Positions 1,018 to 18,141 of a stretch of 41,308 nucleotides of DNA are shown here, one piece after another. The stretch spans positions 1 to 41,308 of the forward strand of contig JAGUYX010000113.1 in the NCBI GenBank assembly GCA_020061145.1. The letters run 5' to 3'. Under the pieces are notes generated by a model. That model worked only from the letters and a program-made list of their open reading frames with translations. It was not told where the DNA came from and ran no database searches. Made by a program: the position numbers and the translations under genes. Every line of letters begins with the position of its first letter. Position 1 is the first letter of the stretch. Origin of the DNA: Anaerolineales bacterium. GTDB taxonomy: Bacteria > Chloroflexota > Anaerolineae > Anaerolineales > DRKV01.

Positions 1018-2769
1018 ATGCATCATTCCAACAAAAAGTGTTCAGCGTTCCTGTTTGCTTTTATTTGCATAACGGTTGTCCTGGCATTTACCACAGGTGT
1101 GCAGCCCATCCAGGCAGAAGAGGATACCTGTCTAAATTGCCACAGCGACCAGGAGTGGTTGAAGGAGTACACCGTGAATTGGTCTAAGGTGTACGTCGAT
1201 CCAACGCAGATGGCTGAGGAGGCTCACGGGGGATTGGATTGTGTCACATGCCACACCGGCGATCCAACGAAAGATACCCCCGAGGAAGCCTGTATCGGGA
1301 TTGCTTACAAAGATCCGGCCGCCCCGGAGACCGTGCGGAAGACTTGCGGAAGTTGCCATCCCGAAATCACCGATCGTCACCTGTCCTCAATTCACTCCAC
1401 ACTCAATGGCATTCGTCTTTCGCTACATGATTTGGTCGGTGAGGAAGAAGGCGAGGCTCGTTTTCAGGCTTCCTGCAATAAGTGCCATACAACCTGTTCA
1501 AGCTGCCACATGGAGCAGCCAGGCGCTCACGGCCTCCTTCAGCCGCAGGTAGAAAGCCATTCTTTCGCCGCCGAATCCTCAACGGATGTATGTGTTGCGT
1601 GCCATGACGGCACCGGGGTATCCTATTTGGGCAACCCTAAAGTTGAAGGGGCTGTGCCCAGCTCCATGGCGGAAGCAGGTATCGAGTGTATGGGGTGTCA
1701 TGTCGAAGAAGACGTACATGGCACTGGTGTACGCACCAATTTCCTTTCAGAAACAGAGAAACCAAAGTGTGAGACATGCCATAAGGATCCAGGTTACCTG
1801 GTAAGCGTCTCCGAAGGGCAGCGGCTCGCTCCCCAATTCGATGAGGAAAATCCGGCCCATGCTGATCACAAGAACTCCCTAAGCTGTGTAGCCTGCCATA
1901 CCCAATGGTATCAGAGCTGCTGGAACTGCCACGCTGGCCGCGAGGAAAGATCGACGACCGATGTTTACCTGGCGGTCAACCCGTTGACGAACCTGGTGCA
2001 CCCCGCAGTGCATTCCCCCGCGACCAGTCCGGACTGGGGTGACATCCCCGCAGAGATCGGCGGAGGCTGGGCGATTAAATCCCGGCACAGTTGGGGAGAG
2101 TCGTTAACTTGCGAGTACTGCCATACCGATGCAGCGGTTTATATCACAGGCAAGGATCGCCAGGCGCCTTTTGTCGGTGTTTGGGGGGAAGGTCGTGCAC
2201 AGGCCGCCTTTGTGGACGAGACCGCGATCCAACAGATCTTGATCGACGCGGAAGCGCTGGCTGCTGGCGTCCATAAAGATACAGGCTGTCTCGACTGCCA
2301 TTCCACGACCGATGATGCCGTTTGCAGTGAATGCCATGCAAACGTAGAAAAATCCGGATTGACACTTCTGGCTGATGAGACCGATTGGTCACGGACTGGC
2401 TACGCCACTACCCGCGACAATCTTCGGGAAATCGAAACCATCCTGATAGAGCTCGAGGCGCGGGGCATCCAAACTGGTGATTGGAGTGAGCAATGGTCAA
2501 GTATTAACGAAGACTATCTGCAGGGTTCGAAAACTTTCCACGACAAACCTGGAGAAACGCAAAAAGCGATGGATGAGATTGCCGGGAGGTCGGAGAACTT
2601 GATCGCAGAAGTCGACCGGGCAATGGAAAAAGATAACGCTCGCAGAGACTGGTTGCTGGCAGGCATTCCCTTTGGGCTCGGAGTCATAGGAGCAGTTGTA
2701 CTTGGTTATGTCGTCGAAAAACCAAATCGGAAGGATGAGGTGAATCACAAATGCGAAGAAACAGAGTGA
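1018..2769 (+). CDS. Membrane-anchored multiheme cytochrome c (13 CXXCH)
   Basis: N-terminal signal peptide, 13 counted CXXCH motifs, a helical region and a C-terminal TM helix. Confidence 0.93.
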   Translation: MHHSNKKCSAFLFAFICITVVLAFTTGVQPIQAEEDTCLNCHSDQEWLKEYTVNWSKVYVDPTQMAEEAHGGLDCVTCHTGDPTKDTPEEACIGIAYKDPAAPETVRKTCGSCHPEITDRHLSSIHSTLNGIRLSLHDLVGEEEGEARFQASCNKCHTTCSSCHMEQPGAHGLLQPQVESHSFAAESSTDVCVACHDGTGVSYLGNPKVEGAVPSSMAEAGIECMGCHVEEDVHGTGVRTNFLSETEKPKCETCHKDPGYLVSVSEGQRLAPQFDEENPAHADHKNSLSCVACHTQWYQSCWNCHAGREERSTTDVYLAVNPLTNLVHPAVHSPATSPDWGDIPAEIGGGWAIKSRHSWGESLTCEYCHTDAAVYITGKDRQAPFVGVWGEGRAQAAFVDETAIQQILIDAEALAAGVHKDTGCLDCHSTTDDAVCSECHANVEKSGLTLLADETDWSRTGYATTRDNLREIETILIELEARGIQTGDWSEQWSSINEDYLQGSKTFHDKPGETQKAMDEIAGRSENLIAEVDRAMEKDNARRDWLLAGIPFGLGVIGAVVLGYVVEKPNRKDEVNHKCEETE

Positions 2770-3395
2770 TTTTTGTGACTGTATTTGTTTTTGGCTTGAT
2801 CGCTGGCCTTGGCATCGGAATGATGATCGGTAGGGGTGGTTCAAACGCAGATCTGGCGCAGGCAAATACTGAACTGGAGGCCCGCCTGGATACAGCCACT
2901 GAAAACTATATGATCTTGATGAGGGAGTATAACAAGCTGTTTTCTTCGAAAACCGCTTTCCTCGCTGGATCTCCTGTTCAGGTGAGCTCTGCCTCTGAGA
3001 ACCAACCAGCCGTGATCGTGACGCAAGAGCCGACAACAACCTCTGAACCACAGGTAATTGCCACGAGCACCCCAACCCCTCTACCGGTTGGAGATACCGG
3101 CAAACCGGTTGCGGATTTTGAGGCGGAATCGATCAACGGAACCGGACCCCTGGAAGGGCCCCCTCCTCAGCCTTTCCAATTTACAGACAAGTCCACCGGA
3201 GTAATCACCAGTTGGTTATGGGACTTCGGCGATGGCACGACCAGCAATGAGCAGCATCCCTTGCATACCTATGAGAAGTGCCCTGGCGATGCCGAGCTGT
3301 GCACCGTGTCTCTGACGGTCTGCGGACCAGATGGCTGCGACACCATGACCAAGGTTGATTACTTGTGGGTCTCTGAGTCCTGCACCGGGTGCTAG
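2751..3395 (+). CDS. Membrane-anchored PKD-domain protein with Cys-rich C-terminus
   Basis: N-terminal TM, coiled-coil, Thr/Pro linker, PKD signature (PVADF...SWLWDFGDG...HTY), ends in CTGC. Confidence 0.85.
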   Translation: MRRNRVIFVTVFVFGLIAGLGIGMMIGRGGSNADLAQANTELEARLDTATENYMILMREYNKLFSSKTAFLAGSPVQVSSASENQPAVIVTQEPTTTSEPQVIATSTPTPLPVGDTGKPVADFEAESINGTGPLEGPPPQPFQFTDKSTGVITSWLWDFGDGTTSNEQHPLHTYEKCPGDAELCTVSLTVCGPDGCDTMTKVDYLWVSESCTGC

Positions 3396-3419
3396 CCGGG
3401 ACTTCCCATAAGATAACGA

Positions 3420-4595
3420 ATGGGAAAAGGTAGCATGCACTTCAAGAAACTCTTTCGTACACTCGCCGTTGCCACGGTCGTAGTTGTGTGGGGAGCCGGG
3501 TTAACCGTTTCCCGCACCGCGCTTGCCCGTGATGCAACCCAGGCAGCCAGCCCAGGGGATGAGTGCGTCACCTGCCACTCCACCCCCGGCCTGGGGATGC
3601 GTTTCACTACGGGTGAGATCGTCTCGGTCTACGTCGATCCGTGGCAGTGGGAGCAGTCCGTTCACGGTTCGACCCTACAATGCACCGCCTGTCACGCTGA
3701 CAGCGCGGTTTATCCTCACCTGGGGCGCGCAATTGCCCATCCGAGTCCCCGGGAGGTGGGGTACCTGACGCGCGGGTATGCTACCTGCGGTGAATGTCAC
3801 CAGCAACAGTATGTGGAATATCTGGGAAGCGTCCATGCGATCGCGCTCCGGGATGGCCAGGCCGAATCCGCGGTGTGCAGCGACTGCCATGGGGATCACG
3901 ACATCGAGCCGGCAGAAGCGAAACGAGATGGTTTGTCCGTCAGGACAGCTGTGATCAACTGTGGAAAATGTCACCAAGAGGAGTTCCAGCAGTATCAGAA
4001 TAGCGTGCATGGTAAAGCACTCTTGAATGGCGGTGATCCGAACGTTCCTGTCTGTGTAGACTGCCACGGTGTGCATGCCATGGGCGATCCAACGATGCCT
4101 GGATTTCGCCGTCAGTCACCCTATCTGTGCGCCTCCTGCCACGCGGATGAGGCGCTGATGAAAGAATATGGATTATCGGCCTCTGTTATGGAAACGTATG
4201 TCGCTGATTTCCATGGGACAACAATGCGGATGATTTCTTCTGATGATGCACCGATATCTGCCGGCGCTGCGCCTGGAGTAGCGATGTGTTACGACTGCCA
4301 CGGGGTCCATGAAATCCGCAGCATGGTCGATGCGCAAAACCCGGCCAGCGGTGATGGTTTGCTGGATATCTGCCAGGAGTGCCACGAGAACGCGCCGCAG
4401 GATTTCCCTGCCGCCTGGTTAGGGCATCGCAAGCCAGATTCCGACCGCTTTCCTCTTGTATTCTGGATCCAGCGCATTTACTCCATTGTAGTTGGTGGGA
4501 TGATTATCGTCTTTGTAGGCCATATCGGCCTCGACTTTGGGAAGATTATCGTTGGCAAGTTACGCGATGAGAGGAAGAGGAGGAGAGCTGAATGA
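3420..4595 (+). CDS. Nonaheme cytochrome c with C-terminal TM (CbcL-like c-type part)
   Basis: Signal peptide, 9 CXXCH, repeated SVH motifs, C-terminal TM with His. ATGA overlap with the cytochrome b gene. Confidence 0.9.
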   Translation: MGKGSMHFKKLFRTLAVATVVVVWGAGLTVSRTALARDATQAASPGDECVTCHSTPGLGMRFTTGEIVSVYVDPWQWEQSVHGSTLQCTACHADSAVYPHLGRAIAHPSPREVGYLTRGYATCGECHQQQYVEYLGSVHAIALRDGQAESAVCSDCHGDHDIEPAEAKRDGLSVRTAVINCGKCHQEEFQQYQNSVHGKALLNGGDPNVPVCVDCHGVHAMGDPTMPGFRRQSPYLCASCHADEALMKEYGLSASVMETYVADFHGTTMRMISSDDAPISAGAAPGVAMCYDCHGVHEIRSMVDAQNPASGDGLLDICQECHENAPQDFPAAWLGHRKPDSDRFPLVFWIQRIYSIVVGGMIIVFVGHIGLDFGKIIVGKLRDERKRRRAE

Positions 4596-5782
4596 GTGAA
4601 ATCAACCTGGAGAGGTTTAGCCGATTCTCTCGAAGTGAGCGCATCCAGCACGCCCTGTTGCTGGTCATGGTAACGTTGCTGGCGCTGACCGGACTGCCAC
4701 AAAAATTCAGTTCAATGGATTGGGCGCCGGTCATGATACGCATGCTCGGTGGTGTGGAGGTTGCCCGCCTTATTCATCGTTTCTGCGCATTCACTCTTAT
4801 CGCCGGGATGACCTATCACGTGTTGTATGGTTTGTATCGGCTGGTCTTAAAGCGCGCCAGGTTTGAAATGCTGCCCAGAATCAGGGATTTTAATGATTTG
4901 AAAGGAAACATCGCCTATTTCGTTGGAATCAAGAAAGAGCGACCGCGTTTCGAGCGCTTCAACTATATTGAAAAGTTTGAATATTGGGCGGTGCTGTGGG
5001 GGATGGTCGTGATGACGCTCACCGGCTTGATCTTATGGTTCCCTGCCAGTGCCGCCAGGATTTTGCCTGGGCTTGCCATTCCCGCTGCCAAAGCTGCTCA
5101 CAGCGGTGAAGCCTTCCTGGCTATAACCGCGGTCGTAATCTGGCACATGTATAACGCTCACATGAGTCCCAGGGTGTTCCCCATCAATAAGTCCATCTTC
5201 AATGGGAAGATCTCAAGGCATGAACTGATGAGCGAGCATGCAAGCGAGTACGAGCGCCTCACCGGCGAGGAAGTGCCGGGAGAAGTTCTTGCGGAACGGC
5301 CGGAGGTTTCTTGGTCCATGCTCCTGACTTCCGGTCTGGTGGGCGTGTTGCTGGTTAGTATGTTCACTATCTTGCTGTACTGGAGCATCACGCCGCCCAA
5401 GCCGGCTCTTCTGCCACCTCTTCACCCTCCTCTGGAGCGGAACTCGATCCTTGTGACGGAAACCCCTTACGGTGCAGACCCAACCGTTTTCTGGGCGGGG
5501 CTTCAGGCACCTCCCGTGGCAGACTTCTCTGTCGCTCAAGAAGAAGTGGGGGAGGGTGGAGCGGCCATCCAGGAACTCCGTTTCCACGACCAATCCACTG
5601 GCCAGGTGACGAGCTGGTTGTGGGATTTTGGCGATGGAGAGACCAGCATGGATCAAAACCCAGTGCACGTTTATAAAGGGACATGCCCGGCAGGCGATCA
5701 CTGTCTTGTTTCCCTGATTGCCTGCGGACCGGGTGGCTGTAACCGTCTTACAAGACCAACCTTGATCCAGCCGCACAGGTAA
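4592..5782 (+). CDS. Di-heme cytochrome b (FdnI/HydC-like) fused to a C-terminal PKD domain
   Basis: RF..ERIQH, LALTGLP, RLIHR, RFNYIEKFEYW, AHSGEA, IWHMY motifs, followed by PKD (SWLWDFGDG). Confidence 0.88.
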   Translation: MSEINLERFSRFSRSERIQHALLLVMVTLLALTGLPQKFSSMDWAPVMIRMLGGVEVARLIHRFCAFTLIAGMTYHVLYGLYRLVLKRARFEMLPRIRDFNDLKGNIAYFVGIKKERPRFERFNYIEKFEYWAVLWGMVVMTLTGLILWFPASAARILPGLAIPAAKAAHSGEAFLAITAVVIWHMYNAHMSPRVFPINKSIFNGKISRHELMSEHASEYERLTGEEVPGEVLAERPEVSWSMLLTSGLVGVLLVSMFTILLYWSITPPKPALLPPLHPPLERNSILVTETPYGADPTVFWAGLQAPPVADFSVAQEEVGEGGAAIQELRFHDQSTGQVTSWLWDFGDGETSMDQNPVHVYKGTCPAGDHCLVSLIACGPGGCNRLTRPTLIQPHR

Positions 5783-5846: not shown

Positions 5847-6404
5847 ATGAGCAAACCTGGTTACACAGAACCGACGATCCTGGAGAGTTCCCTGACCCCT
5901 CTCATCCAACACTTTAATGATCACCTGGGCAAGGTGCGTTTTATCACCCTGCTCTCTCCCACCTGACCGAAGTGAATTGACAAAGGTACCCGTGCGGTAC
6001 GAAATGGTATCCTCGAAGCTTTTCCGGGTGCTGATATTGCGATCATGGTGGTCTGGATCAGTATGATGGAGGGTGATACTTTGGAAGCTGCGCGCAAAGG
6101 TAGCGAGACCTTGCCCGATCCCCGGATCCGATTCTTCTTCGACCCCATCCAGCAATCGGGGCAGGCCATCGCGGCCAGTCTGGGAAACCCCAGGGAAGTC
6201 GCCTGGGACGTTTACCTCTTCTACCCACCAGATTCCGTTTGGGAAGGACGGATCCCCCCCGGACCTGAGATGTACATGCATCAGTTGAGTGATAGCTGGG
6301 CAGACCAGGGACGCTTGTTTCAAGACCTGGAGCTGGGCAAGGAACTCCACCGCGAGATGTCCATACGAATTGACAGATACAAAGTCGGCAAAGTGAAAGA
6401 ATGA
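5847..6404 (+). CDS. Thioredoxin-fold selenoprotein with UxxU motif (TGA 5964, TGA 5973), 185 aa
   Basis: GAGG RBS and ATG 5847, reading ...KVRFITLLSPT-U-PK-U-IDKG... in frame with track ORF 6045..6404. Both TGAs occupy CxxC positions after a beta strand. Confidence 0.85.
5986..6000 (+). promoter_or_regulatory. Candidate SECIS hairpin
   Basis: GTACC-CGTGC-GGTAC starting 10 nt after the second TGA. The stem is short. Confidence 0.5.
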
Positions 6405-6874
6405 AGCGGCAAAGAGAGATTTGTAATACCCTGCTCCTGGCGTTGGCAACAGCCGTGCTTGCCGCTTGTATGTCTGGCACGGAGGCCTCGCCATCTCCCA
6501 TTATCCCCACACGGGCGGGAACACCTGCCCGTGAAACCACCGCTTCGCCTGCCCCCACACCAGTCCCACTCGCGCAGATGGCCGCAGATGAAGACGAACC
6601 CGGGAGTGAAGAGGGGGCGGAGGAGATCGATTGGGGAGAGGAGATCGGTCTCGATACTGTCATCGAGCTGGCGAAACGGGACGATCTGGTCGAAATTCAA
6701 TGGCACGTGATGCCGAACATCATCCGGGTGTTAATTGCAGATGGCAGTATTTATCATTTCAGGAATGAAAATTCAGGGATCGATATCATCAGAACTCTGG
6801 AGAATGCCGGTATCACGGTTGGGAAAGGAGGCGTTACCGTTCGATTCTCCTTTTGCAATTGAGAGGCGCCTTAA
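6401..6874 (+). CDS. Lipoprotein, probably with C-terminal CxU (C-N-U-E-A-P-stop); ends at 6862 if TGA is a stop
   Basis: Lipobox VLAAC and a Pro/Thr linker. TGA 6860 lies two codons after Cys, TAA follows at 6872, and a SECIS-like hairpin is present. Confidence 0.7.
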
Positions 6875-6892: not shown

Positions 6893-6916
6893 AAGTGTCG
6901 GGTGAGCTTGGGAACG

Positions 6917-7285
6917 ATGCCATACAGCAGCCTCGTACTGCAATATTTTTATGCACGGAAAGGCCTCGGAGATGTGCAGGATCCCGATGGGATCGGTGAA
7001 GCCAGCAGCGAGCGGATCTACATTCGCATCGCAATACGGGTGAGTGAGGACCACATTGTGGAGGTCAAATATCGTTGCCCCACCTGTGTGGTTGCCATCG
7101 CCGCGTGCAGTGCCCTGGCAGATCGGGTTGAGAACCTGACCCTGGAGGAGGCAGCGCATGTTTCTCCGGACGAGCTGAGCGCCATGCTCGGCGGCATCCC
7201 AAAAGAGCGTTACGATCGTTGTATTCTTGCGGTCGATGCCTTGAAGAGAGCAATCAATAACTACAAAGTAAATCGAAAGGATTGA
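6917..7285 (+). CDS. IscU/NifU N-terminal-like scaffold protein (atypical)
   Basis: YSSLVLQYF...GDVQDPDGIGE...KYRCPTCVVAIAACSAL...LGGIP..RC..LAVDALKRAI matches the IscU fold. The first Cys loop is missing. Confidence 0.8.
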   Translation: MPYSSLVLQYFYARKGLGDVQDPDGIGEASSERIYIRIAIRVSEDHIVEVKYRCPTCVVAIAACSALADRVENLTLEEAAHVSPDELSAMLGGIPKERYDRCILAVDALKRAINNYKVNRKD

Positions 7286-7289
7286 GACC

Positions 7290-7622
7290 ATGAAAGTCGC
7301 CTATATCTTTTCTACCACGAATAGCCACAAGATCCTGGACACAATGATTCTGCCGCAATTGGAAGAAAAAAGGCATGGCGTTACCGTCGTTGGGATGTTT
7401 TTCTTTTTCGATAACACCTTCTTTCTCATGAACGGGACGGACATCGGGGCGCGCCTGCAGAAGATCCAGGGAGAAACGGGTATGCTGCTCATGGGCTGCG
7501 ACCAGTGCATTTTCGAGCGCCATCTTGCCGACAAACTCATTCCTGGCGCGCGCATGGGATGTTTCCCCGACCTGTATCAGGCATTGGGCCCTGCTGCACC
7601 TGATCAGGTGATCACGCTTTAG
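7290..7622 (+). CDS. DsrE-family (SaoD-like) sulfur/selenium relay protein
   Basis: MKVAYIF...MILPQLEE..HGV.VVGMFFFFDN...CDQC...GCFPDLY..L..PDQVITL, recognised from memory as the SaoD/DsrE family. Confidence 0.75.
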   Translation: MKVAYIFSTTNSHKILDTMILPQLEEKRHGVTVVGMFFFFDNTFFLMNGTDIGARLQKIQGETGMLLMGCDQCIFERHLADKLIPGARMGCFPDLYQALGPAAPDQVITL

Positions 7623-7709: not shown

Positions 7710-8015
7710 GTGAACAAGATCCTGGTTGAGTTCTTCAGCACCTGCCCGGGTTGAAAAGCTGATGAGCAGTTGGTAACTGCTATCTGCGCCAGCCCTGCTT
7801 GGCGCGACAGGGTCGAGCTCAAGGTATATCGCCTGGACCAGGACCCTTCCGAGGGCAAAAGGTATGGGAATATTCGGGGAGCCACGGTCGTGATTAACCA
7901 GAGGGACATGCTTCGACGGATAAACGCCTATGCCTTGCAGCAAGCCTTAGCACAGGCAGAAACAAACCAGATAAACGAACACCTGGCCGTGAATAATGAG
8001 TGGTTCCATGAATAG
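7710..8015 (+). CDS. Thioredoxin-like selenoprotein, CxxU (SaoT-like); TGA at 7752
   Basis: GAGGA RBS and GTG 7710: MNKILVEFFSTCPG-U-KADEQL...VELKVY...KRYG...TVVIN, in frame with track ORF 7770..8015. Confidence 0.85.
7761..7784 (+). promoter_or_regulatory. Candidate SECIS hairpin
   Basis: GAT-G-AGCAGTT-GGT-AACTGCT-ATC, with the GGT loop 17 nt after the TGA. Confidence 0.75.
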
Positions 8016-8568
8016 CACTATGCTGATCCTCTTGTTCACCCTCCTCTCAACAGTGGCTCTTCTGCTGTTGGCAAACAAGCTCCGCCTTTTCCGCGACCGG
8101 GAAGTGGTTGGATCAATCCTTCATTTGGCGATCACTGACCGGGAAAGCGTGCGGCTTGGCATCGTAGCCGCGGCAATGTATGTGGCGGTTTTTATGATTT
8201 TTGGCGGTCAGGGTGGCCGTATCCATGTTTTTTGGGGACGCTGGATCCTCACCATGACCGCCGGTGATGCCGTTCTTGGCGTGTTCATCGCGTTCCTGAT
8301 CGGACTGGCGGTGGTCCTGATCTCCTACAGTATCAAAGCCATGGGATTGCCCAAGGCTGGAAAGGGCGGAATAGGCGTATTGGGCACGGCGCTTGCCATG
8401 CTTGCTTCTTTCTGTCCCTGATGACTCCCCATGATCACAGCTCTGGTCGGAGCTGCAGGAGCCGTATTCTTAGCCAGCTATTGGAGCCTGCTGGCGCTTT
8501 TGTCGATCGATATGCTCCTGGCCAGCGTTTTGATGTTGGTAGCGAAGTTGAGAGATGAGGCGACTTGA
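7996..8568 (+). CDS. Multi-TM membrane selenoprotein with CPUU motif (tandem TGA 8419, 8422), 190 aa
   Basis: The track ORF ends LASFCP. TGA TGA is followed by 47 further hydrophobic codons (LPMITALVGAAGAVFLASYWSLLALLSIDMLLASVLMLVAKLRDEAT*). Confidence 0.8.
8438..8455 (+). promoter_or_regulatory. Candidate SECIS hairpin
   Basis: CAGCTCT-GGTC-GGAGCTG with the loop 20 nt after the second TGA. CTCC/GGAG can form a lower stem. Confidence 0.72.
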
Positions 8569-8659
8569 ATATGACAGCCAAGCGAGTCCTAGTTAAGGAC
8601 TGGAACAACCAACCCGATAACCCTATGCCGTTGCTGCGTTTGTTCGAGACCGTTTAGAG

Positions 8660-9862
8660 ATGATTTACCTGGATCATGCCGCGACGACCCCCGTCCGTTC
8701 CGAAGTGCTGGATGCCATGATGCCCTTCTTCTCGTTAAATTATGGCAACCCTTCGAGCCTTCATCATAAAGGCCAGGAGGCCTCTCAAGCGCTCGAAGAT
8801 GCCCGCCAGTCAATCGCCAAAGACTTGAATTGTTATCCGGATGAGATCGTTTTTACAAGCGGCGGTACAGAGAGTGATAATCTTGCCATCCGCGGGTATG
8901 CATTTGCCAATCAACGAAACGGCAAGCACATTATCACCTCCTGCGTCGAACACCATGCTGTTCTAAACACCTGCCGCCAGCTTCAACAACACCATGGTTT
9001 TGAAGTCACGTACCTGCCGGTCGATTCGACCGGGATGGTATCCCCAGACGATTTCCAGGGGGCGATCAAACCAGAGACGATCCTGGCGAGCATCATGTAT
9101 GCCAACAACGAGGTGGGCACGATTGAACCCATTCGGGAATTGGCCCGGATTGCGCATGACCACGATGTCGGGTTTCATACGGATGCCGTCCAGGTCTTGG
9201 GACTGATAGATTTGAATTTGAGAGAGCTCGGGGTGGATATGCTCTCGCTCTCAGCCCATAAGTGTTATGGCCCCAAGGGTGTAGGGGTGTTGTTTGTGAA
9301 GCGCGGGGTCCTGCTCATGGAAATCCATGCCGGCGGGGGGCAGGAGAGCACACGCCGCTCTGGGACGGAAAATGTACCGGGGATCGTCGGCATGGCTACG
9401 GCAATCCACCTGGCCTTCTCGGGTTACCGGAAAAACCTGCATCGTTTGGAGAAGTTACGCGACCGCTTGATTGAGTATATCCTGGAGGAAGTACCCGGTG
9501 CCCAGCTCACAGGACATCCTGCTCAGCGCTTACCGAATTCCGCCAGTTTCACCTTCCCGAATATACCTGGCCCGGATGAATTGATTTTATTGCTTGATTT
9601 GAATGGAATTGCGGCCTCCAGCGGGTCAGCCTGCCATGCGAAATCCATCGAACCTTCTCATGTGCTCACCGCAATGGGCGTTTCTCTGGAGCGATCCTCC
9701 GGCAGCCTGAGGCTCAGCCTGGGATATGAGAATACAGAAGAGGAGATCAAACAGGTGCTGCACATCTTGCCAGAGGTGGTGATGGAACTGCAAGGGCTGT
9801 CGGGGGGCTTTCATGCTACGAACAGCAAAGCAAAAAATCCATATCTAGAATCGGGAAAATAG
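8660..9862 (+). CDS. iscS: Group I cysteine desulfurase (IscS/NifS-like)
   Basis: IYLDHAATTP, GNPSS, FTSGGTES, SAHK (PLP Lys), RSGTENV and SSGSACH motifs. Confidence 0.92.
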   Translation: MIYLDHAATTPVRSEVLDAMMPFFSLNYGNPSSLHHKGQEASQALEDARQSIAKDLNCYPDEIVFTSGGTESDNLAIRGYAFANQRNGKHIITSCVEHHAVLNTCRQLQQHHGFEVTYLPVDSTGMVSPDDFQGAIKPETILASIMYANNEVGTIEPIRELARIAHDHDVGFHTDAVQVLGLIDLNLRELGVDMLSLSAHKCYGPKGVGVLFVKRGVLLMEIHAGGGQESTRRSGTENVPGIVGMATAIHLAFSGYRKNLHRLEKLRDRLIEYILEEVPGAQLTGHPAQRLPNSASFTFPNIPGPDELILLLDLNGIAASSGSACHAKSIEPSHVLTAMGVSLERSSGSLRLSLGYENTEEEIKQVLHILPEVVMELQGLSGGFHATNSKAKNPYLESGK

Positions 9863-10029: not shown

Positions 10030-11934
10030 ATGCAACCAATGCGTAAGAAGTTTGCAATAGCTGTCCAATTGATGCTGACGCTGGCAATGATCCTTGCCGC
10101 GTGCGGCGCCCCGGCAGCTCCGCAAGCCACGCCTGAGGTCATCAAAGAGACCGTTGTCGTAACCCAGCAAGTGCCCGTGGAGGTCGTTAAGACCGTCGAG
10201 GTCCCAGTCGCACCCTCCGAGTACTCGATAACGGTGCTGAATCCCCAGGGAGCGATCCCGTTCGCCAGTGATCTGGCGCCGCGCCTCGATACCCTGGAGG
10301 GAAAACGTGTGGCCCTGTGGCTTTCCGCGACGCCTGATCATACGTACGCTGGACAGGGAGCGCCGCTGTATGATGAGTTGGCGAAGATGCTGAAAGAAAA
10401 ATTCGCCACCATCGAGATCATCCCTTACACTGATCTTCCCATGAAGTATTCCCCCGCCGATGAGGTTATCGCGGCAATCACCGCGACGGAACCCGATGCA
10501 GTCGTTGTCGCCTTCGGTGGCTGATGAGGGTGCCTTGGAGCGATGGGTTCCATCGCAGTAGAACTGGAAAAACTGGGTATCCCAACAGTAACTCTTTACA
10601 ACGAACGGCATGAGACACGTTTCATGGGTACCGTGTTGGCAAAAGGTTTTGCCGATTATCCGGCAAAGAATTTCGTTGAAATCGATACGCTGACCGAGGA
10701 GGGCGTTCTCGCCCTGGCTCCCCAGGCGTTCGATTTCCTGGTCGCAGGTCTGACAACCTGGGCTCCTCCGTACCTTGAAAAGCAAGGCGATCTGTGGGTT
10801 CCCACCGAATCGGAATTTATCTTCACGGGAGCAGCCTACGCAGAAGCCCTGGAAAACATGAACGAAGCCTTTCTTGCCGATCTCCGCTGGGGTGATGGAT
10901 TACCTTTGGTGCCAGCGACTCGCGAGCGCGTCGACGCCCTTCTGGCTGGCACGGACCTGGCCCCAGACACAGTTATCGGCACCTGGGGTCCGACAGGCGC
11001 TCAGTTCACGGTTGAAAAGATCGCCATCAATGCCGCCATGGCCGGGGCCCAACCCGAGTATATGCCGGTCATCTTAGCCGCCCTCCAGGCGATTACTTCC
11101 GTCAGATGGGATTCCTATGGACCTGTCATGAAGTCGCCGGTCCCCCTGGTGATCGTGAACGGCCCGGTTGCGAAGCAGATCGGTCTGAACTCCTCTGCGA
11201 ACGCGTTCGGTCCCAACCCGAAATACCCTGCAGGCGCGACAATTGGCCGGGCGATCAGCCTGGCGATGCACAACATTCCAGGTAATGGCCGTGGTTTGCT
11301 GCCCTCCAATCTGGCTGGAAATCCTGCAATGTACGCAGGGATGGTGATTGCGGAAGCTGAGGAAACCGAAGCGCTTGCTGAGGGCTGGGATCCGCTGAAC
11401 GTCCAGTTGGGATATGCCCCCGGCACGAACACTGTGACCGTGTTGGGCGTTGACCAGATGGACATGAGCATCTCGGGCTTTGTCGCTAACGTAGCCGCTT
11501 ACGTTGCCCCCGATAAGAACATCTGGCCAAGCTCGGCCGAAGCCTTCGATCAGCGCGTGGCAGGCGTGGTCGCGGTATCGGAAATGATGTTGATCACCGA
11601 CGGCATGATGAAGGGCATCACCAAAGCCGATATCCAGGAGGAGATGTACGAGAAGGCTCGCATCCCGGTGGATGAGTTCATGACGTTGGTTCTCACCGCG
11701 GAAGACGGTAGCGCTGTGGAACCGAACGCATTTATAAGAGAGCTCATTGGCGGTCTTGCTCCGGGAGAGGGCGTGCCGGTTGCAGCTGCGCCAGACAAGT
11801 TTCTGGTGGTAGCCACCGGCGGCCACTGAACTTGAGCACCGTATTCGTGGCTCGGTTCGAGCCGCTGGATGAGCACCCCTGTAACCGTCGAGATCTCCCT
11901 TCCCGCTAATTGGGAAAGCCTGGTCTCACAGTAG
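10030..11934 (+). CDS. UGSC-family lipoprotein with four selenocysteines (TGA 10522, 10525, 11827, 11833), 634 aa
   Basis: AAGGAG RBS and lipobox LAAC. Track ORFs 10030..10524 and 10543..11829 join in frame via VVVAFGG-U-U-GC-LGAMGSIAVELEKLGIPTV. The core has GDGLPLVPAT and TVEKIAINAAMAG. The end reads VVATGGH-U-T-U-APYSW...VEISLPANWESLVSQ, then TAG TAA. Confidence 0.88.
10540..10556 (+). promoter_or_regulatory. Candidate SECIS hairpin
   Basis: GCGATGG-GTT-CCATCGC starting 12 nt after the second TGA. Confidence 0.78.
11847..11865 (+). promoter_or_regulatory. Candidate SECIS hairpin
   Basis: GTGGCTCG-GTT-CGAGCCGC starting 11 nt after the second TGA. Confidence 0.78.
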
Positions 11935-12016: not shown

Positions 12017-12111
12017 GGGAGTGATTGAGTCCTGGTGGGCTCCTCGGTCTTCAAAACCGCTGTGGGGAGGTGGAAACCTTCCTGGGTGGGTTCGACTCCC
12101 ATTCACTCCCG
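12017..12111 (+). tRNA. selC: tRNA-Sec (anticodon TCA)
   Basis: 8-bp acceptor stem GGGAGTGA/TCACTCCC, anticodon loop CTTCAAA (TCA 12051-12053), long variable arm, 5-bp T stem with TTCGACT loop, G discriminator. CCA is not fully encoded. Confidence 0.96.
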
Positions 12112-12162
12112 CCTTTTACGCAGTATATGACAGGATTGCTTTGATAGAAAGGAGGTATGCCG

Positions 12163-15140: not shown

Positions 15141-15151
15141 GTGGCATCGAA

Positions 15152-16201
15152 GTGCTAAAAACAACCATTCGTCTCACCGAACTCTCCTCCTGTGCGGGTT
15201 GAGCATCTAAGCTGAGCCCAGAGGCTCTGGCGCAGGTGCTGCGCCCTTTGCGTGCCATGTTCCAGCCCCAGGATTGTCCCGATCTGATGGTCGGCATTGG
15301 TTGTCTGGATGATGCCGCCGTGTATCGCTTGGACAGTGAACGGGCCCTGATCTTCACGACAGATTTTTTCACGCCGGTGGTGGATGATCCGTATGACTAT
15401 GGAGCCATTGCCGCAGCCAATGCCCTTTCTGACGTGTACGCCATGGGCGGAGCGCCGTTGCTGGCGCTAAACCTGGCCGCGTTTCCAGCGCGCCTGCCGG
15501 CTGAGATCCTTGGGCAGGTGTTGATGGGAATGGCGGATATGGTCAAACAGGCTGGGGCTGTGGTGGCTGGAGGCCATACGATCCAGGACGAAGAGCCAAA
15601 AGTCGGCTTGTGCGTGGCTGGGATGGTCCACCCGGACAAGCTGCTCACCAAGGGAGGTGTGCAGCCTGGCGATCAGCTAGTGTTAACCAAGCCTCTTGGG
15701 ACAGGCCTTATTACCACGGCTGCCAAAATGGATCTGGCGGATCGGGAGGATGTCGATGAGGCAATCCAGTGGATGAGACGGCTTAACAGAGCTGCCGGGA
15801 AAACCGCAGCGGACCTGGACTTGCGAGGCGGTACCGATGTCACCGGATTCGGCCTGTTGGGTCATGCCTGGGAAATGGCAGAAGCGTCGCGAGTAACCCT
15901 TAAGGTTTTTTTTGAGGCAGTGCCGTTCATGAACGGTGTTGTCCGTTATGCCGACCAAGGGCTGTTCCCCGGCGGAACGGCATCGAATTATACGGCTTAT
16001 AGCAAACGGATCCATTTTGCAGAATATTTGAATGAGGATCAAAAGATGCTGCTGTTTGATGCGCAAACAAGCGGAGGACTACTCTTGGCCGTGCCACAGG
16101 AGAAGATGGGGGAGTTCTCCAATATGATGGAATTCCATGGCGAAAAGTGTTGGATCATCGGTGAGGCGGTGGGCAGGGAAGCCGGAATTCAGGTCATCTG
16201 A
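15152..16201 (+). CDS. selD: Selenophosphate synthetase, Sec-containing (U17, TGA 15200)
   Basis: GTG 15152: MLKTTIRLTELSSCAG-U-ASKLSP; then DDAAVY, TTDFFTP, ANALSDVYAMGG, GGHT, TDVTGFGLLGH, FDAQTSGGLL. Hairpins at 15214-15227 and 15229-15245. Confidence 0.96.
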
Positions 16202-16227: not shown

Positions 16228-18141
16228 ATGTATGTAGTCGGTACAGCCGGTCATGTCGATCATGGAAAGTCGACGTTGGTGCGGGCATTGACTGGGATCG
16301 ACCCCGACCGTTTGAAAGAAGAAAAAGAGCGCGAGATGACGATCGATTTGGGGTTTGCCTGGCTGGAACTGCCCAGTGGTCAGGAAGTCTCGATCGTTGA
16401 CGTTCCCGGGCACGAAGACTTCATTAAAAACATGCTGGCCGGGGTAGGGGGGATCGACGCTGTACTGCTGACGGTAGCTGCGGATGAGGCGATCATGCCT
16501 CAGACGCGCGAACATGTGGCGATTCTCGATCTCCTGGAGGTCAAGGCTGGCCTGGTTGTGTTGACAAAAGCCGACATGGTGCCTGACGAGGAATGGTTGG
16601 AGTTGGTCAAAATGGATGTGGCGAGTCTGCTGGAGAAAACCTCACTGGCAGGCGCCCCGATTGTGTTGGTATCCTCCAAGACCGGGAAAGGTCTGATCGA
16701 TCTGGAAGACAACCTCGATGCCCTTCTCAAGAAAACCCCACCACGCCGAGACTTCAACAGGCCGCGCCTATCTATTGATCGAATCTTTACAAAGCCCGGA
16801 TTTGGGACTATCGTCACCGGGACGCTGATTGATGGTCGTTTTTGTGTGGGAGATGAAATCGAGATCCAGCCGAAAGGGTTGAAGGGGCGAATCCGCGGGC
16901 TTCAAACCCACAAAAACAAAGTGGAAGTGGCCACTCCTGGCAGCCGAGTCGCGATCAACCTGACCGGCGTGAATCTGGAAAATCTCAGCCGGGGAGACGT
17001 TGTCACTCATCGCGGTTGGTTGAGCGGTACGGTTTTAGTGGATGCCCGCATCCGGGTTCTGGAGGACTTTGAACTGGCGCTGAGGCATGACATGGAAATC
17101 GAGATCTTCTCCGGGGCCTCACAGGTTTTGGGTCATGCCCGGGTGCTCGGCGCGGATGAAATTCGTCCTGGAGAATTAGGCTGGGTCCAGATCCGCCTGG
17201 TTGATCCAATTGCGTTGGTCAAAGGGGATAGGCTGATCCTTCGCCAGCCCTCTCCAAGCCGGACGATCGGCGGAGGAGTAGTTATCGATCCGCATCCCTA
17301 CCGCAAGCACCGCCGTTACCACGAAGAGGTCATCCGCCATTTAGGGGCAATGGCATCGGATACGCCTGAGGAAATCTTGCTGGCGACGCTGATGAAACAG
17401 GAGCCTATCTCAGCGCGGCTGGCCGTCCAACGCAGCCAGCTTGATTTGGAAGCAGCAGGAAGTGCGTTGTCTAAGCTGCTGGCAGAAGGATTGGTCTATG
17501 TGCTAAATAGCGACACTTCCGATCCTGGCAAGCTTGTTTCTGGCTCTTCCAACCTGATTTCCGCGGAAGGTTTCAATCGATTTGTTGAGCGGATCCGACA
17601 GGTCCTTTCGGAGTATCATACTGCGTTCCCGCTCCGCCTCGGGTTGCCCAGAGAAGAGTTGAACAGCCGCCTGGGTTTGGACCGTCAATTGGTCAATACC
17701 ATCGTAGAGCGTGCCGTGAAGCTGGGCTCGATTAGGGCTGTAGGGGGAAGCCTTTCCTTACCGGGGCACAAAGTGCTATTTTCTCCTGAACAACAGAGGC
17801 AAATTAACCAGGCTTTGGAGGTTTTCCGTCAGGCGCCTTTCACCCCGCCCCCTACAAGAGAGGTAGCATCGCTGATTGGAACAGAGGTCCTCTTTGCGCT
17901 CCTTGAGCAGGGGTGCTTGACCCAGGTGAGTAAGGATGTCGTTTTCATGACTGATACCTACAACCGCATCATCGAACAGGTTGTACAACACCTGAAGGAA
18001 CAAGGTACGATCACGATAGCGGAGGCGCGCGATCTCTTCAATACCAGCCGGAAATATACCCAGGCAATCCTCGAGCACATGGACGAAAAACGGATTACCA
18101 AGCGCCTGGGTGATAACCGGATATTACGACAAATGACTTAG
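16228..18141 (+). CDS. selB: Selenocysteine-specific elongation factor
   Basis: [35 protein letters not shown], and C-terminal winged helices with SRKY. Confidence 0.97.

Follow-up and report, generated by a model that had tools for sequence, protein, structure and literature searches.

In the bacterial mercury carriers, Hg(II) is brought inward from periplasmic MerP by thiols that lie within a membrane helix, present as the CPC motif of MerE or the vicinal CC of MerT, MerF, and MerC, and by a second, cytoplasmic Cys pair. A gene whose predicted product places selenocysteine (Sec, U) at comparable positions was found in a 41,308-nucleotide (nt) stretch of DNA from an Anaerolineales bacterium (GTDB lineage Bacteria; Chloroflexota; Anaerolineae; Anaerolineales; DRKV01), namely positions 1 to 41,308 of the forward strand of contig JAGUYX010000113.1 in NCBI GenBank assembly GCA_020061145.1; the whole of this stretch is referred to here as the window. 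The gene, hereafter the target, most probably encodes an integral membrane protein in which four in-frame UGA codons are read as Sec, the first two of them adjacent in a C-P-U-U motif. Judged from conservation and coding pattern, the product is very probably a genuine multi-Sec selenoprotein of a three-gene cassette.

Several described systems share parts of this arrangement, and the comparisons below draw on 10.1101/2022.07.06.499078, PMC13188914, PMC2398784, PMC13326102, and PMC1976440. The selenocysteine-assisted organometallic (SAO) system of Haft and Gwadz is a multi-gene, selenoprotein-rich locus in which CC/CU motifs are read as metal ligands, and the commonest motif of its SaoT component is CPCC (10.1101/2022.07.06.499078). 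In the Global Ocean Sampling (GOS) survey, the UGSC family is called a likely thioredoxin (Trx)-fold redox family and a UGSC/Unknown_1 fusion is noted. The Tso operon (TsoA/B/C) appears in a review table of selenoprotein families with the motifs LULAxC, UxxxxU, and NEPxGxxU and the models NF045695, NF045694, and NF045708.

The coding sequence of the target runs on the forward strand from ATG 8008 to a TAG stop at 8590-8592 (8008..8592, stop included) and specifies 194 amino acids (aa), while the alternative ATG at 7996 would give 198 aa. The start at 8008, which is M5 of the longer version, coincides with the invariant Met start column of the homologues and overlaps the TAG stop (8013-8015) of the SaoT-like gene upstream. 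An earlier sequence-only reading of this DNA had drawn the feature from 7996 to 8568; the open reading frame (ORF) is real, its likely start is at 8008, and the triplet at 8566-8568 is the third Sec codon rather than a true stop. The ORF at 7996..8421 ends in A-S-F-C-P, with TGA at 8419-8421 followed directly by TGA at 8422-8424, giving Sec-Sec in the motif F-C-P-U-U-L-P (8419..8424; U138 and U139 counted from 8008, U142 and U143 from 7996). Past 8424 the frame, reading L-P-M-I-T-A-L-V-G-A-A-G-A-V-F-L, stays open through CTC CCC (L-P) and 45 more sense codons, which are strongly hydrophobic and include the two further hydrophobic stretches that the sequence-only reading had described. The tail reads D-E-A-T-U-I-U-Q-P-S-E-S-TAG, in which TGA ATA TGA (8566..8574) supplies the third and fourth Sec as a U-x-U motif (TGA 8566-8568 and TGA 8572-8574) that is kept in relatives. 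The pair at 8419-8424 had thus been recognized earlier, while the U-x-U pair had been missed and the total is four. A profile search of the bacterium's own genome matched profile positions 1 to 194 with four TGA codons inside.

Homologous loci were collected by pattern-limited scans, so that the counts given describe what the patterns could find, and close homologues among them are mutually related. A scan of one genome per species returned eight loci, from Desulfatiglandales, Desulfobacteraceae, a delta proteobacterium, and Acidobacteria metagenome-assembled genomes, all eight of which carry F-C-P-TGA-TGA-L-P with a conserved continuation. A scan of metagenomes returned a further 38 loci, and each of the 34 that cover the site reads F-C-P-TGA-TGA-[L/V/M/I/A]-P, so that 43 sequences span the tandem site once the window is included. 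The open frame across TGA TGA after SFCP, on which the sequence-only reading was built, is therefore present in the window, in 8/8 genome loci, and in 34/34 metagenome loci. The U-x-U motif was found in 7/7 genome loci and 31/31 metagenome loci that reach the tail (39/39 with the window), and its middle residue is variable, taking 12 values (G in 14, H in 6, R in 5, and nine others). G-U-x-U followed by five residues and TAG was present in 36 of the 38 loci reaching the end; loci L026 and L047 read past that point. The full pattern of F-C-P-TGA-TGA, 46 to 47 codons, TGA-NNN-TGA, five codons, and a stop was found in 37 sequences including the window, and the stop was TAG in all 37. One metagenome copy of the cassette (L061:1355-2618) looks broken, its target aligning as two segments that lie in different frames, with the usual motif region unreadable. 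Searches of 60 relatives up to order level (best chance-level E value, 0.03) and of a sample of 400 further genomes from the phylum did not recover the target.

Two hairpins resembling bacterial selenocysteine insertion sequence (SECIS) elements accompany the two Sec pairs, each stem starting 16 nt downstream of the leading UGA in its pair. Hairpin 1 (8438..8455, forward strand; CAGCUCU-GGUC-GGAGCUG, 7 bp with loop GGUC) serves the tandem UGA, and its stem lies 13 nt after the second UGA. The ungapped alignments on which pairing was counted start at the leading TGA of the respective pair. In hairpin 1 (columns 20-26 with 31-37), 252 of 252 cells were paired across 36 distinct sequences, a count that leans on related sequences, and the same relatedness bears on the covariation statistics that follow. 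Pair 21-36 occurs as AU in 21 sequences, GC in 13, and GU in 2, and pair 24-33 as UA in 35 and CG in 1. The covariation score was reached by none of 500 shuffles, and controls in which the columns were slid were 35 to 57% paired; covariation was also assessed in an 8-sequence version. The exchanged positions are synonymous third codon positions in both arms. The SECIS-like hairpin proposed by the sequence-only reading is accordingly present and carries compensatory changes. Hairpin 2 (8585..8601, forward strand; AGUCCU-AGUUA-AGGACU) holds the TAG stop and runs past the coding region. It (columns 20-25 with 31-36) was paired in 93.9% of 198 cells, with pair 22-34 seen as CG in 21, UA in 5, and UG in 5 sequences, and pair 20-36 as CG in 19, UA in 4, AU in 1, UG in 1, and unpaired in 8. 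Its covariation score was also reached by 0/500 shuffles, and its 3' arm is noncoding. Among the 37 full-pattern copies, TAA or TGA is never used as the true stop, and TAG sits within hairpin 2 (CCUAGUU). The apical loops, GGUC or GGGC in hairpin 1 and AGUUA or AGUUC in hairpin 2, contain the G and U expected of a SECIS loop. Neither hairpin matched an Rfam model at gathering score, the sole match in the window being the tRNA-Sec.

The simplest alternative is a real double stop, in which a 141-aa product would be complete and the frame beyond it would be either an independent small ORF or a remnant left by decay. Gene callers annotate the locus in this way. A full HMMER scan of 1.84 billion representative proteins returned 19 matches at an E value of ≤0.001, of which 10 stop exactly at query residue 141 (...F-C-P, in one case ...F-S-P) and one corresponds to the 45-aa ORF that follows in the window, which is recorded as a protein of its own. 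The RNAfold z-score of the 60 nt after the site is also unremarkable (+0.40). The sequence-only reading had taken homologues ending at CP as a sign against itself, which proved a misleading test, because these ends arise where gene callers stop at TGA and the DNA continues in frame. Its other such sign, a lack of conservation in the 47 codons downstream, was not seen; frame, length (46 to 47 codons), and sequence past the stops are conserved in all loci, and across 30 distinct 47-codon sequences the entropy at codon positions 1, 2, and 3 was 0.78, 0.38, and 1.21, which is a coding signature between the two Sec sites. An ATG lies within 14 codons past the UGA pair in only 9 of 36 distinct sequences, and any of ATG, GTG, or TTG in 17 of 36, a scarcity that argues against a separately started downstream ORF. 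Together with the covariation of hairpin 1, the presence of Sec machinery, and Cys homologues that read through the site with CC, these observations make a genuine double stop highly improbable.

These Cys homologues are six of the 19 HMMER matches, which cross the site as x-x-C-C-G/A-P in four cases and as C-P-F-C and C-V-A-C in the other two. Alignment of the Sec group (A5) with five of the Cys homologues (A8) using hhalign gave a probability of 99.5% and an E value of 3.5e-22, so that UU falls on a CC, and the first U of the tail on a Cys, that are invariant in these homologues; Cys clusters were found in the tail of four of the five aligned Cys homologues. One of them, P0014, has a signal peptide and an HMA domain (E value, 4.9e-10) ahead of the same membrane domain. 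The analogy to CC-type motifs drawn by the sequence-only reading is strengthened by this alignment and by the exported HMA domain of P0014, and locus conservation, the CC alignment, and hairpin covariation together strongly support its adjacent Sec in a membrane helix. P0017 and P0018 were partial matches. In P0018 (294 aa), the first ~100 residues of a target homologue are joined to UGSC-like sequence; this is probably a deletion or gene-call artifact, and the join also points to the two genes traveling as a unit. Word-indexed homologue searches returned only the window's own record with the read-through protein and five proteins, none informatively named, with a 48-row profile.

The two genes that accompany the target, which the sequence-only reading had missed along with the cassette as a whole, also encode paired Sec. 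Searches by tblastn using the neighbors in the window recovered, as far as each contig reaches, the order lipoprotein, target, and UGSC-like protein (~600 aa) on the same strand in 8/8 genome and 38/38 metagenome loci. Cassette gene 1 (6401..6874, forward strand) encodes a small lipoprotein ending F-C-N-U-E-A-P, with TGA at 6860-6862 and a TAA stop at 6872-6874. Its homologues end in F-U-x-U plus four to six residues (25 distinct sequences), while the window has C-x-U, so the first position of the terminal pair is a predicted Cys/Sec exchange. Cassette gene 3 (10030..11934, forward strand; ~634 aa) encodes a UGSC-like lipoprotein with G-G-U-U-G-C (TGA 10522-10527) and, before a conserved tail, G-G-H-U-T-U (TGA 11827-11829 and 11833-11835). 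The UGSC-like proteins carry a signal or lipoprotein peptide, with G-G-U-U-G-C present in 8/8 sequences and a C terminus of G-G-H-U-x-U-A-P-[F/Y]-S-W-L-G... in the 7/7 that reach it, including ~25 conserved residues after the pair. Every Sec site of this gene has its own conserved hairpin. Paired Sec therefore occur in all three cassette proteins, with up to ten Sec per cassette and nine in the window.

None of the three cassette proteins is represented by a model in NCBIfam release 20, and nothing near a cut-off was found for the three read-through proteins of the window or of locus L016. Pfam searches of 26 lipoprotein domains gave nothing below an E value of 0.025, and NCBIfam was likewise without a match for cassette gene 1. 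The first piece of the UGSC-like protein matched PF24696 at 25.7 bits and NF041046 at an E value of 7e-9 (35.8 bits versus a cut-off of 125). In databases it exists as a 428-aa fragment, in Atlas clusters of 501, 66, 82, and 67 members. Because database records split or truncate every one of the cassette genes, three families are systematically misread.

The genome is equipped for Sec insertion. A tRNA-Sec with anticodon TCA lies at 12017..12113 on the forward strand (Rfam, 73.5 bits against a gathering score of 47; also called by ARAGORN), SelB is encoded within the window at 16228-18141, and SelD, itself a selenoprotein (...L-S-S-C-A-G-U-A-S-K-L-S-P...; TGA 15200-15202), at 15150-16201. The listed ORF of SelD begins at GTG 15236, and the NCBIfam SelD model was matched from position 32 on. 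SelA is located on another contig of the genome (533.8 bits), completing the set of tRNA-Sec, SelA, SelB, and SelD, and SelA was also over cut-off in six of eight other cassette genomes. Global recoding of TGA was considered and rejected. The stops of 28 other long ORFs in the window are TGA in 15, TAG in 7, and TAA in 6; with TGA the normal stop in 15/28 of these genes, any read-through would be site specific.

To place the protein in the membrane, residues were numbered from ATG 8008. An AlphaFold2 (AF2) model built from 48 rows had a predicted local distance difference test (pLDDT) score of 73.1 and a predicted template modeling (pTM) score of 0.65, whereas an earlier 8-row model was poor (pLDDT, 64.1); with confidence at this moderate level, only statements on secondary structure are made. 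Helices were predicted at 3-24, 31-43, 45-65, 85-111, 121-135, 140-146, 148-157, and 159-188, with a beta hairpin at 72-81. The 194 aa include five hydrophobic segments, and C136-P137-U138-U139 falls in the fourth, at the break between helices 121-135 and 140-146. Across 34 Sec-type members, the mean number of K plus R residues was 3.8 in the first loop plus 1.9 at each adjoining helix end (~7.6 in total). The second and third loops had 2.8 and 2.6, respectively, the tail had 1.6, and the turn ahead of the last helix had 0.2. By the positive-inside rule, the MerE-like two-helix match described below, and the HMA domain ahead of helix 1 in P0014, the short N terminus would lie outside and C-P-U-U within the membrane, while the strongly basic loop 1, loop 3, and the tail with its U-x-U would be cytoplasmic.

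The family that this arrangement most recalls is that of the Mer carriers. MerE (PF05052) matched residues 127-178 (numbered from 7996) with an E value of 0.0019 and 18.5 bits, and the match recurs in five of eight full-length members at an E value of ≤0.1 (best, 1e-5); the CPC-helix end of E1-E2_ATPase likewise matched five of eight members (best E value, 0.0025). The target shares with the Mer carriers an intramembrane Cys/Sec motif in C-P-U-U, a cytoplasmic-looking pair in its U-x-U tail, and a partner that is exported and carries a Sec pair at its end; in addition, its last two helices give the weak MerE match and P0014 is fused to a MerP-like HMA domain. It differs in having Sec in place of Cys, five hydrophobic segments and 194 aa compared with about 78 to 140 aa, and, as partners, a lipoprotein of an unmodeled family and a UGSC-like protein. 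MerE itself is ~78 aa, has two helices, and resides in a mer operon, whereas the target is larger, has more hydrophobic segments, and has no match to a mer-family model among the neighbors scanned. No match was found between the target and MerT, DsbD, SAO, Tso, or other selenoprotein models. The target is thus outside every modeled family and resembles the Mer carriers in motif logic.

Other described systems share fewer features with the cassette. Vertebrate selenoprotein P is Sec rich, has a U-x-U near its C terminus, carries selenium, and binds heavy metals; it is soluble and eukaryotic and has its SECIS elements in the 3' untranslated region, and no homology is claimed. In the Sec-containing membrane transporters listed in the review table and in 10.1101/2022.07.06.499078, Sec likewise replaces a metal-ligand Cys; these have one Sec, however, whereas the target has four, including an adjacent pair, and matches neither PF02411 nor NF033936. 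The CPCC of SaoT is the Cys form of C-P-U-U, and the window encodes a SaoD that exceeds its cut-off as well as, adjacent to the target, a SaoT-like protein with C-P-G-U. In contrast, none of the nine SAO models is matched by any of the three cassette proteins, the SaoP (over cut-off) and SaoB components of a SaoABPX transporter were not found in the bacterium's own genome, and the SaoD and SaoT-like genes are absent from the other 46 loci. Cassette gene 3 combines a UGSC-type domain with a long domain of unknown function, like the fusion noted in the GOS survey, but its motif is U-U-G-C rather than U-G-S-C, it has a further C-terminal U-x-U, and it scores below the NCBIfam cut-off. The three cassette proteins have no matches to the Tso models, and their motifs differ from those given for that operon in the review table.

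Taken as a whole, a multi-Sec membrane protein of a cassette that works as a Mer-like Sec-pair relay is the explanation we consider moderately probable. The Sec pair of the exported lipoprotein would hand a soft, selenophilic cargo by ligand exchange to the intramembrane Cys/Sec/Sec site, from which C-P-U-U would pass it to the cytoplasmic U-x-U pair, Sec standing in for the vicinal Cys of MerT/MerF/MerE-type carriers. For the narrower proposal of a Mer-type relay with Sec pairs, the chance appears slightly short of even. The likeliest cargo would be an ion of a metal or metalloid, with Hg(II), Cu(I), Cd, and As(III) as examples, and selenium itself is less likely; a soft metal(loid) is favored by the HMA-fused Cys homologue and by the similarity to MerE and MerC. 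A possible link to mercury methylation was rejected, as HgcA was over cut-off in 0/9 cassette genomes and the matches of 28 to 80 bits cover only part of the model.

A number of observations weigh against this relay. The MerE match of 18.5 bits falls below the cut-off of 22.8, NF010310 reached 19 to 22 bits versus 80, and MerC in locus L016 reached 14.7 bits versus 140; MerT (PF02411) gave no match in 17 members at an E value of ≤0.05 or in 8 members at ≤0.1. These Mer scores could stem from hydrophobic composition plus a CPC-like motif. No mer-family model was matched by the neighboring genes scanned in the window and five other loci, and no Mer, SAO, or Se uptake context was seen in the other 46 loci. 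The second loop is also positive (2.8 K plus R), leaving the topology not secure, and neither a Foldseek search of the PDB (no solved structure at an E value of ≤0.001) nor a profile search of PDB sequences (nothing meaningful) provided a structural relative. SelA was not matched in two of the eight other cassette genomes, whose completeness is unknown, and Sec decoding is itself inferred from sequence alone. Furthermore, C-x-x-U (C-P-U-U) and U-x-x-C (U-U-G-C) fit a redox relay equally well, and the NifS, NifU-like, DsrE-like, and Trx-like genes interleaved with the cassette in the window, together with the nearby YedE, SclA-like, and SelD genes, point to S/Se trafficking and not to metals. 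Of the interpretation offered by the sequence-only reading, the Sec pair in a membrane helix stands, while a transporter and an electron shuttle are both candidate functions after the family, context, and structure tests.

A transmembrane redox relay resembling DsbD/CcdA is the first of the rivals that these motifs raise. In it, a thioredoxin-like protein would reduce the U-x-U tail and electrons would pass via the C-x-x-U/U-U site, either to maintain the Sec pairs of the exported partners in reduced form or to power the UGSC-like enzyme. The C-P-U-U motif is of the CxxU redox type, and U-U-G-C in the partner is the UxxC of the UGSC family, considered in the GOS survey a likely Trx-fold redox family. 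AF2 puts the site at a helix break, and exported diselenides would, from established chemistry, need a strong reductant. A Trx-fold selenoprotein with C-P-G-U is encoded directly upstream in the window, its stop overlapping the target start, but a Trx-like gene is present in this one locus of 47. Moreover, the DsbD/CcdA families gave no Pfam match, with none at an E value of ≤0.1 in eight members, CcdA (5vkv) appeared only at Foldseek rank 33 (E value, 3.9; template modeling score, 0.23), and the fusion seen in a Cys homologue is to HMA, a metal-binding domain, rather than to a Trx domain. A redox relay is rather unlikely, while retaining a real share of the probability.

The Trx-fold gene just mentioned (7710..8015, forward strand; TGA 7752-7754) is SaoT-like, matching NF040730 at 50.9 bits versus a cut-off of 65. 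As a single-UGA gene it carries a hairpin, GCAGUU-GGU-AACUGC, whose stem begins 11 nt past the UGA, compared with 16 nt in the target. It is one of four genes interleaved with the cassette, the others being a divergent NifU/IscU-like protein (6902..7285, forward strand), the DsrE-related SaoD (7290..7622, forward strand; NF040732, 171.5 bits versus a cut-off of 169), and a NifS-type cysteine desulfurase (8660..9862, forward strand). All four are window-specific insertions, the NifS gene lying between the target and the UGSC-like gene, and they were found interleaved in 1/47 loci, the window only. No SaoP over cut-off and no SaoB were found in the bacterium's own genome (92% complete), so the Sao-type genes of the window stand outside a canonical SAO locus. 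Further genes for selenium in the window encode a YedE-family putative Se transporter (469 bits) and an SclA-like lyase. Upstream, at 1018-5782, are multihaem c-type cytochromes and a cytochrome b561-like protein with PKD domains; one of the cytochromes weakly matches ExtM of selenite/tellurite reduction (E value, 1.8e-10, far below cut-off).

This setting bears on a second rival, a relay for the uptake of selenium (or tellurium or sulfur), in which Se-Se-Se bridges would convey the element from an exported capture or reduction enzyme to the membrane site, the tail, and finally SelD. The cassette of the window lies inside a selenium island (tRNA-Sec, YedE family, SclA-like, SelD, and SelB), is interleaved with NifS, NifU-like, DsrE-related SaoD, and Trx-like genes, and is downstream of the multihaem cytochromes with their weak ExtM match. 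However, such a context occurs in only 1/47 loci; tblastn searches using YedE, SclA-like, SelD, NifS, NifU-like, SaoD, and SaoT found none of them in the 8 genome and 38 metagenome loci. Selenoprotein genes often stand beside Sec machinery for other reasons, and the HMA fusion of the Cys homologue points to metals, which leaves selenium uptake improbable as the function. Explanations beyond metal, redox, and selenium relays and a double stop are similarly improbable. A conserved wider context was also sought and rejected, as five other loci are flanked by unrelated genes (radical SAM, ABC ATPase, DUF169, SDR, C92 peptidase, Ser/Thr kinase, and LysR). An extension of the relay idea, in which the three proteins would form a self-contained system with up to ten paired Sec moving selenium or an ultra-soft metal across the membrane, is unlikely.

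In the literature searched, no description was found of the C-P-U-U membrane protein, of adjacent bacterial Sec codons, or of the three-gene cassette, all of which appear undescribed, an earlier description being not fully excluded; nor was a precedent found there for a vicinal diselenol inside a membrane helix. In the prevailing view, the distance between bacterial SelB and the single UGA on which it acts is fixed. At four sites of this operon, a lone hairpin apparently serves a pair of UGA codons that are either adjacent or separated by one codon, making the cassette a natural test bed for the SelB spacing rule and for processive Sec insertion. If true, the tandem site would provide the first example in nature of neighboring UGA codons that are both decoded as Sec from a single bacterial SECIS hairpin. 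In the consulted part of a table of prokaryotic selenoprotein families in a review from May 2026, none has more than three Sec, and the strings UxU, CUU, PUU, and UUG are absent. A specific prokaryotic selenium uptake system is still missing according to reviews; were the cargo selenium, the relay would be that missing system, and were it selenium or a toxic soft metal, the cassette would represent a new route of uptake or handling in anaerobic sediment and wetland bacteria.

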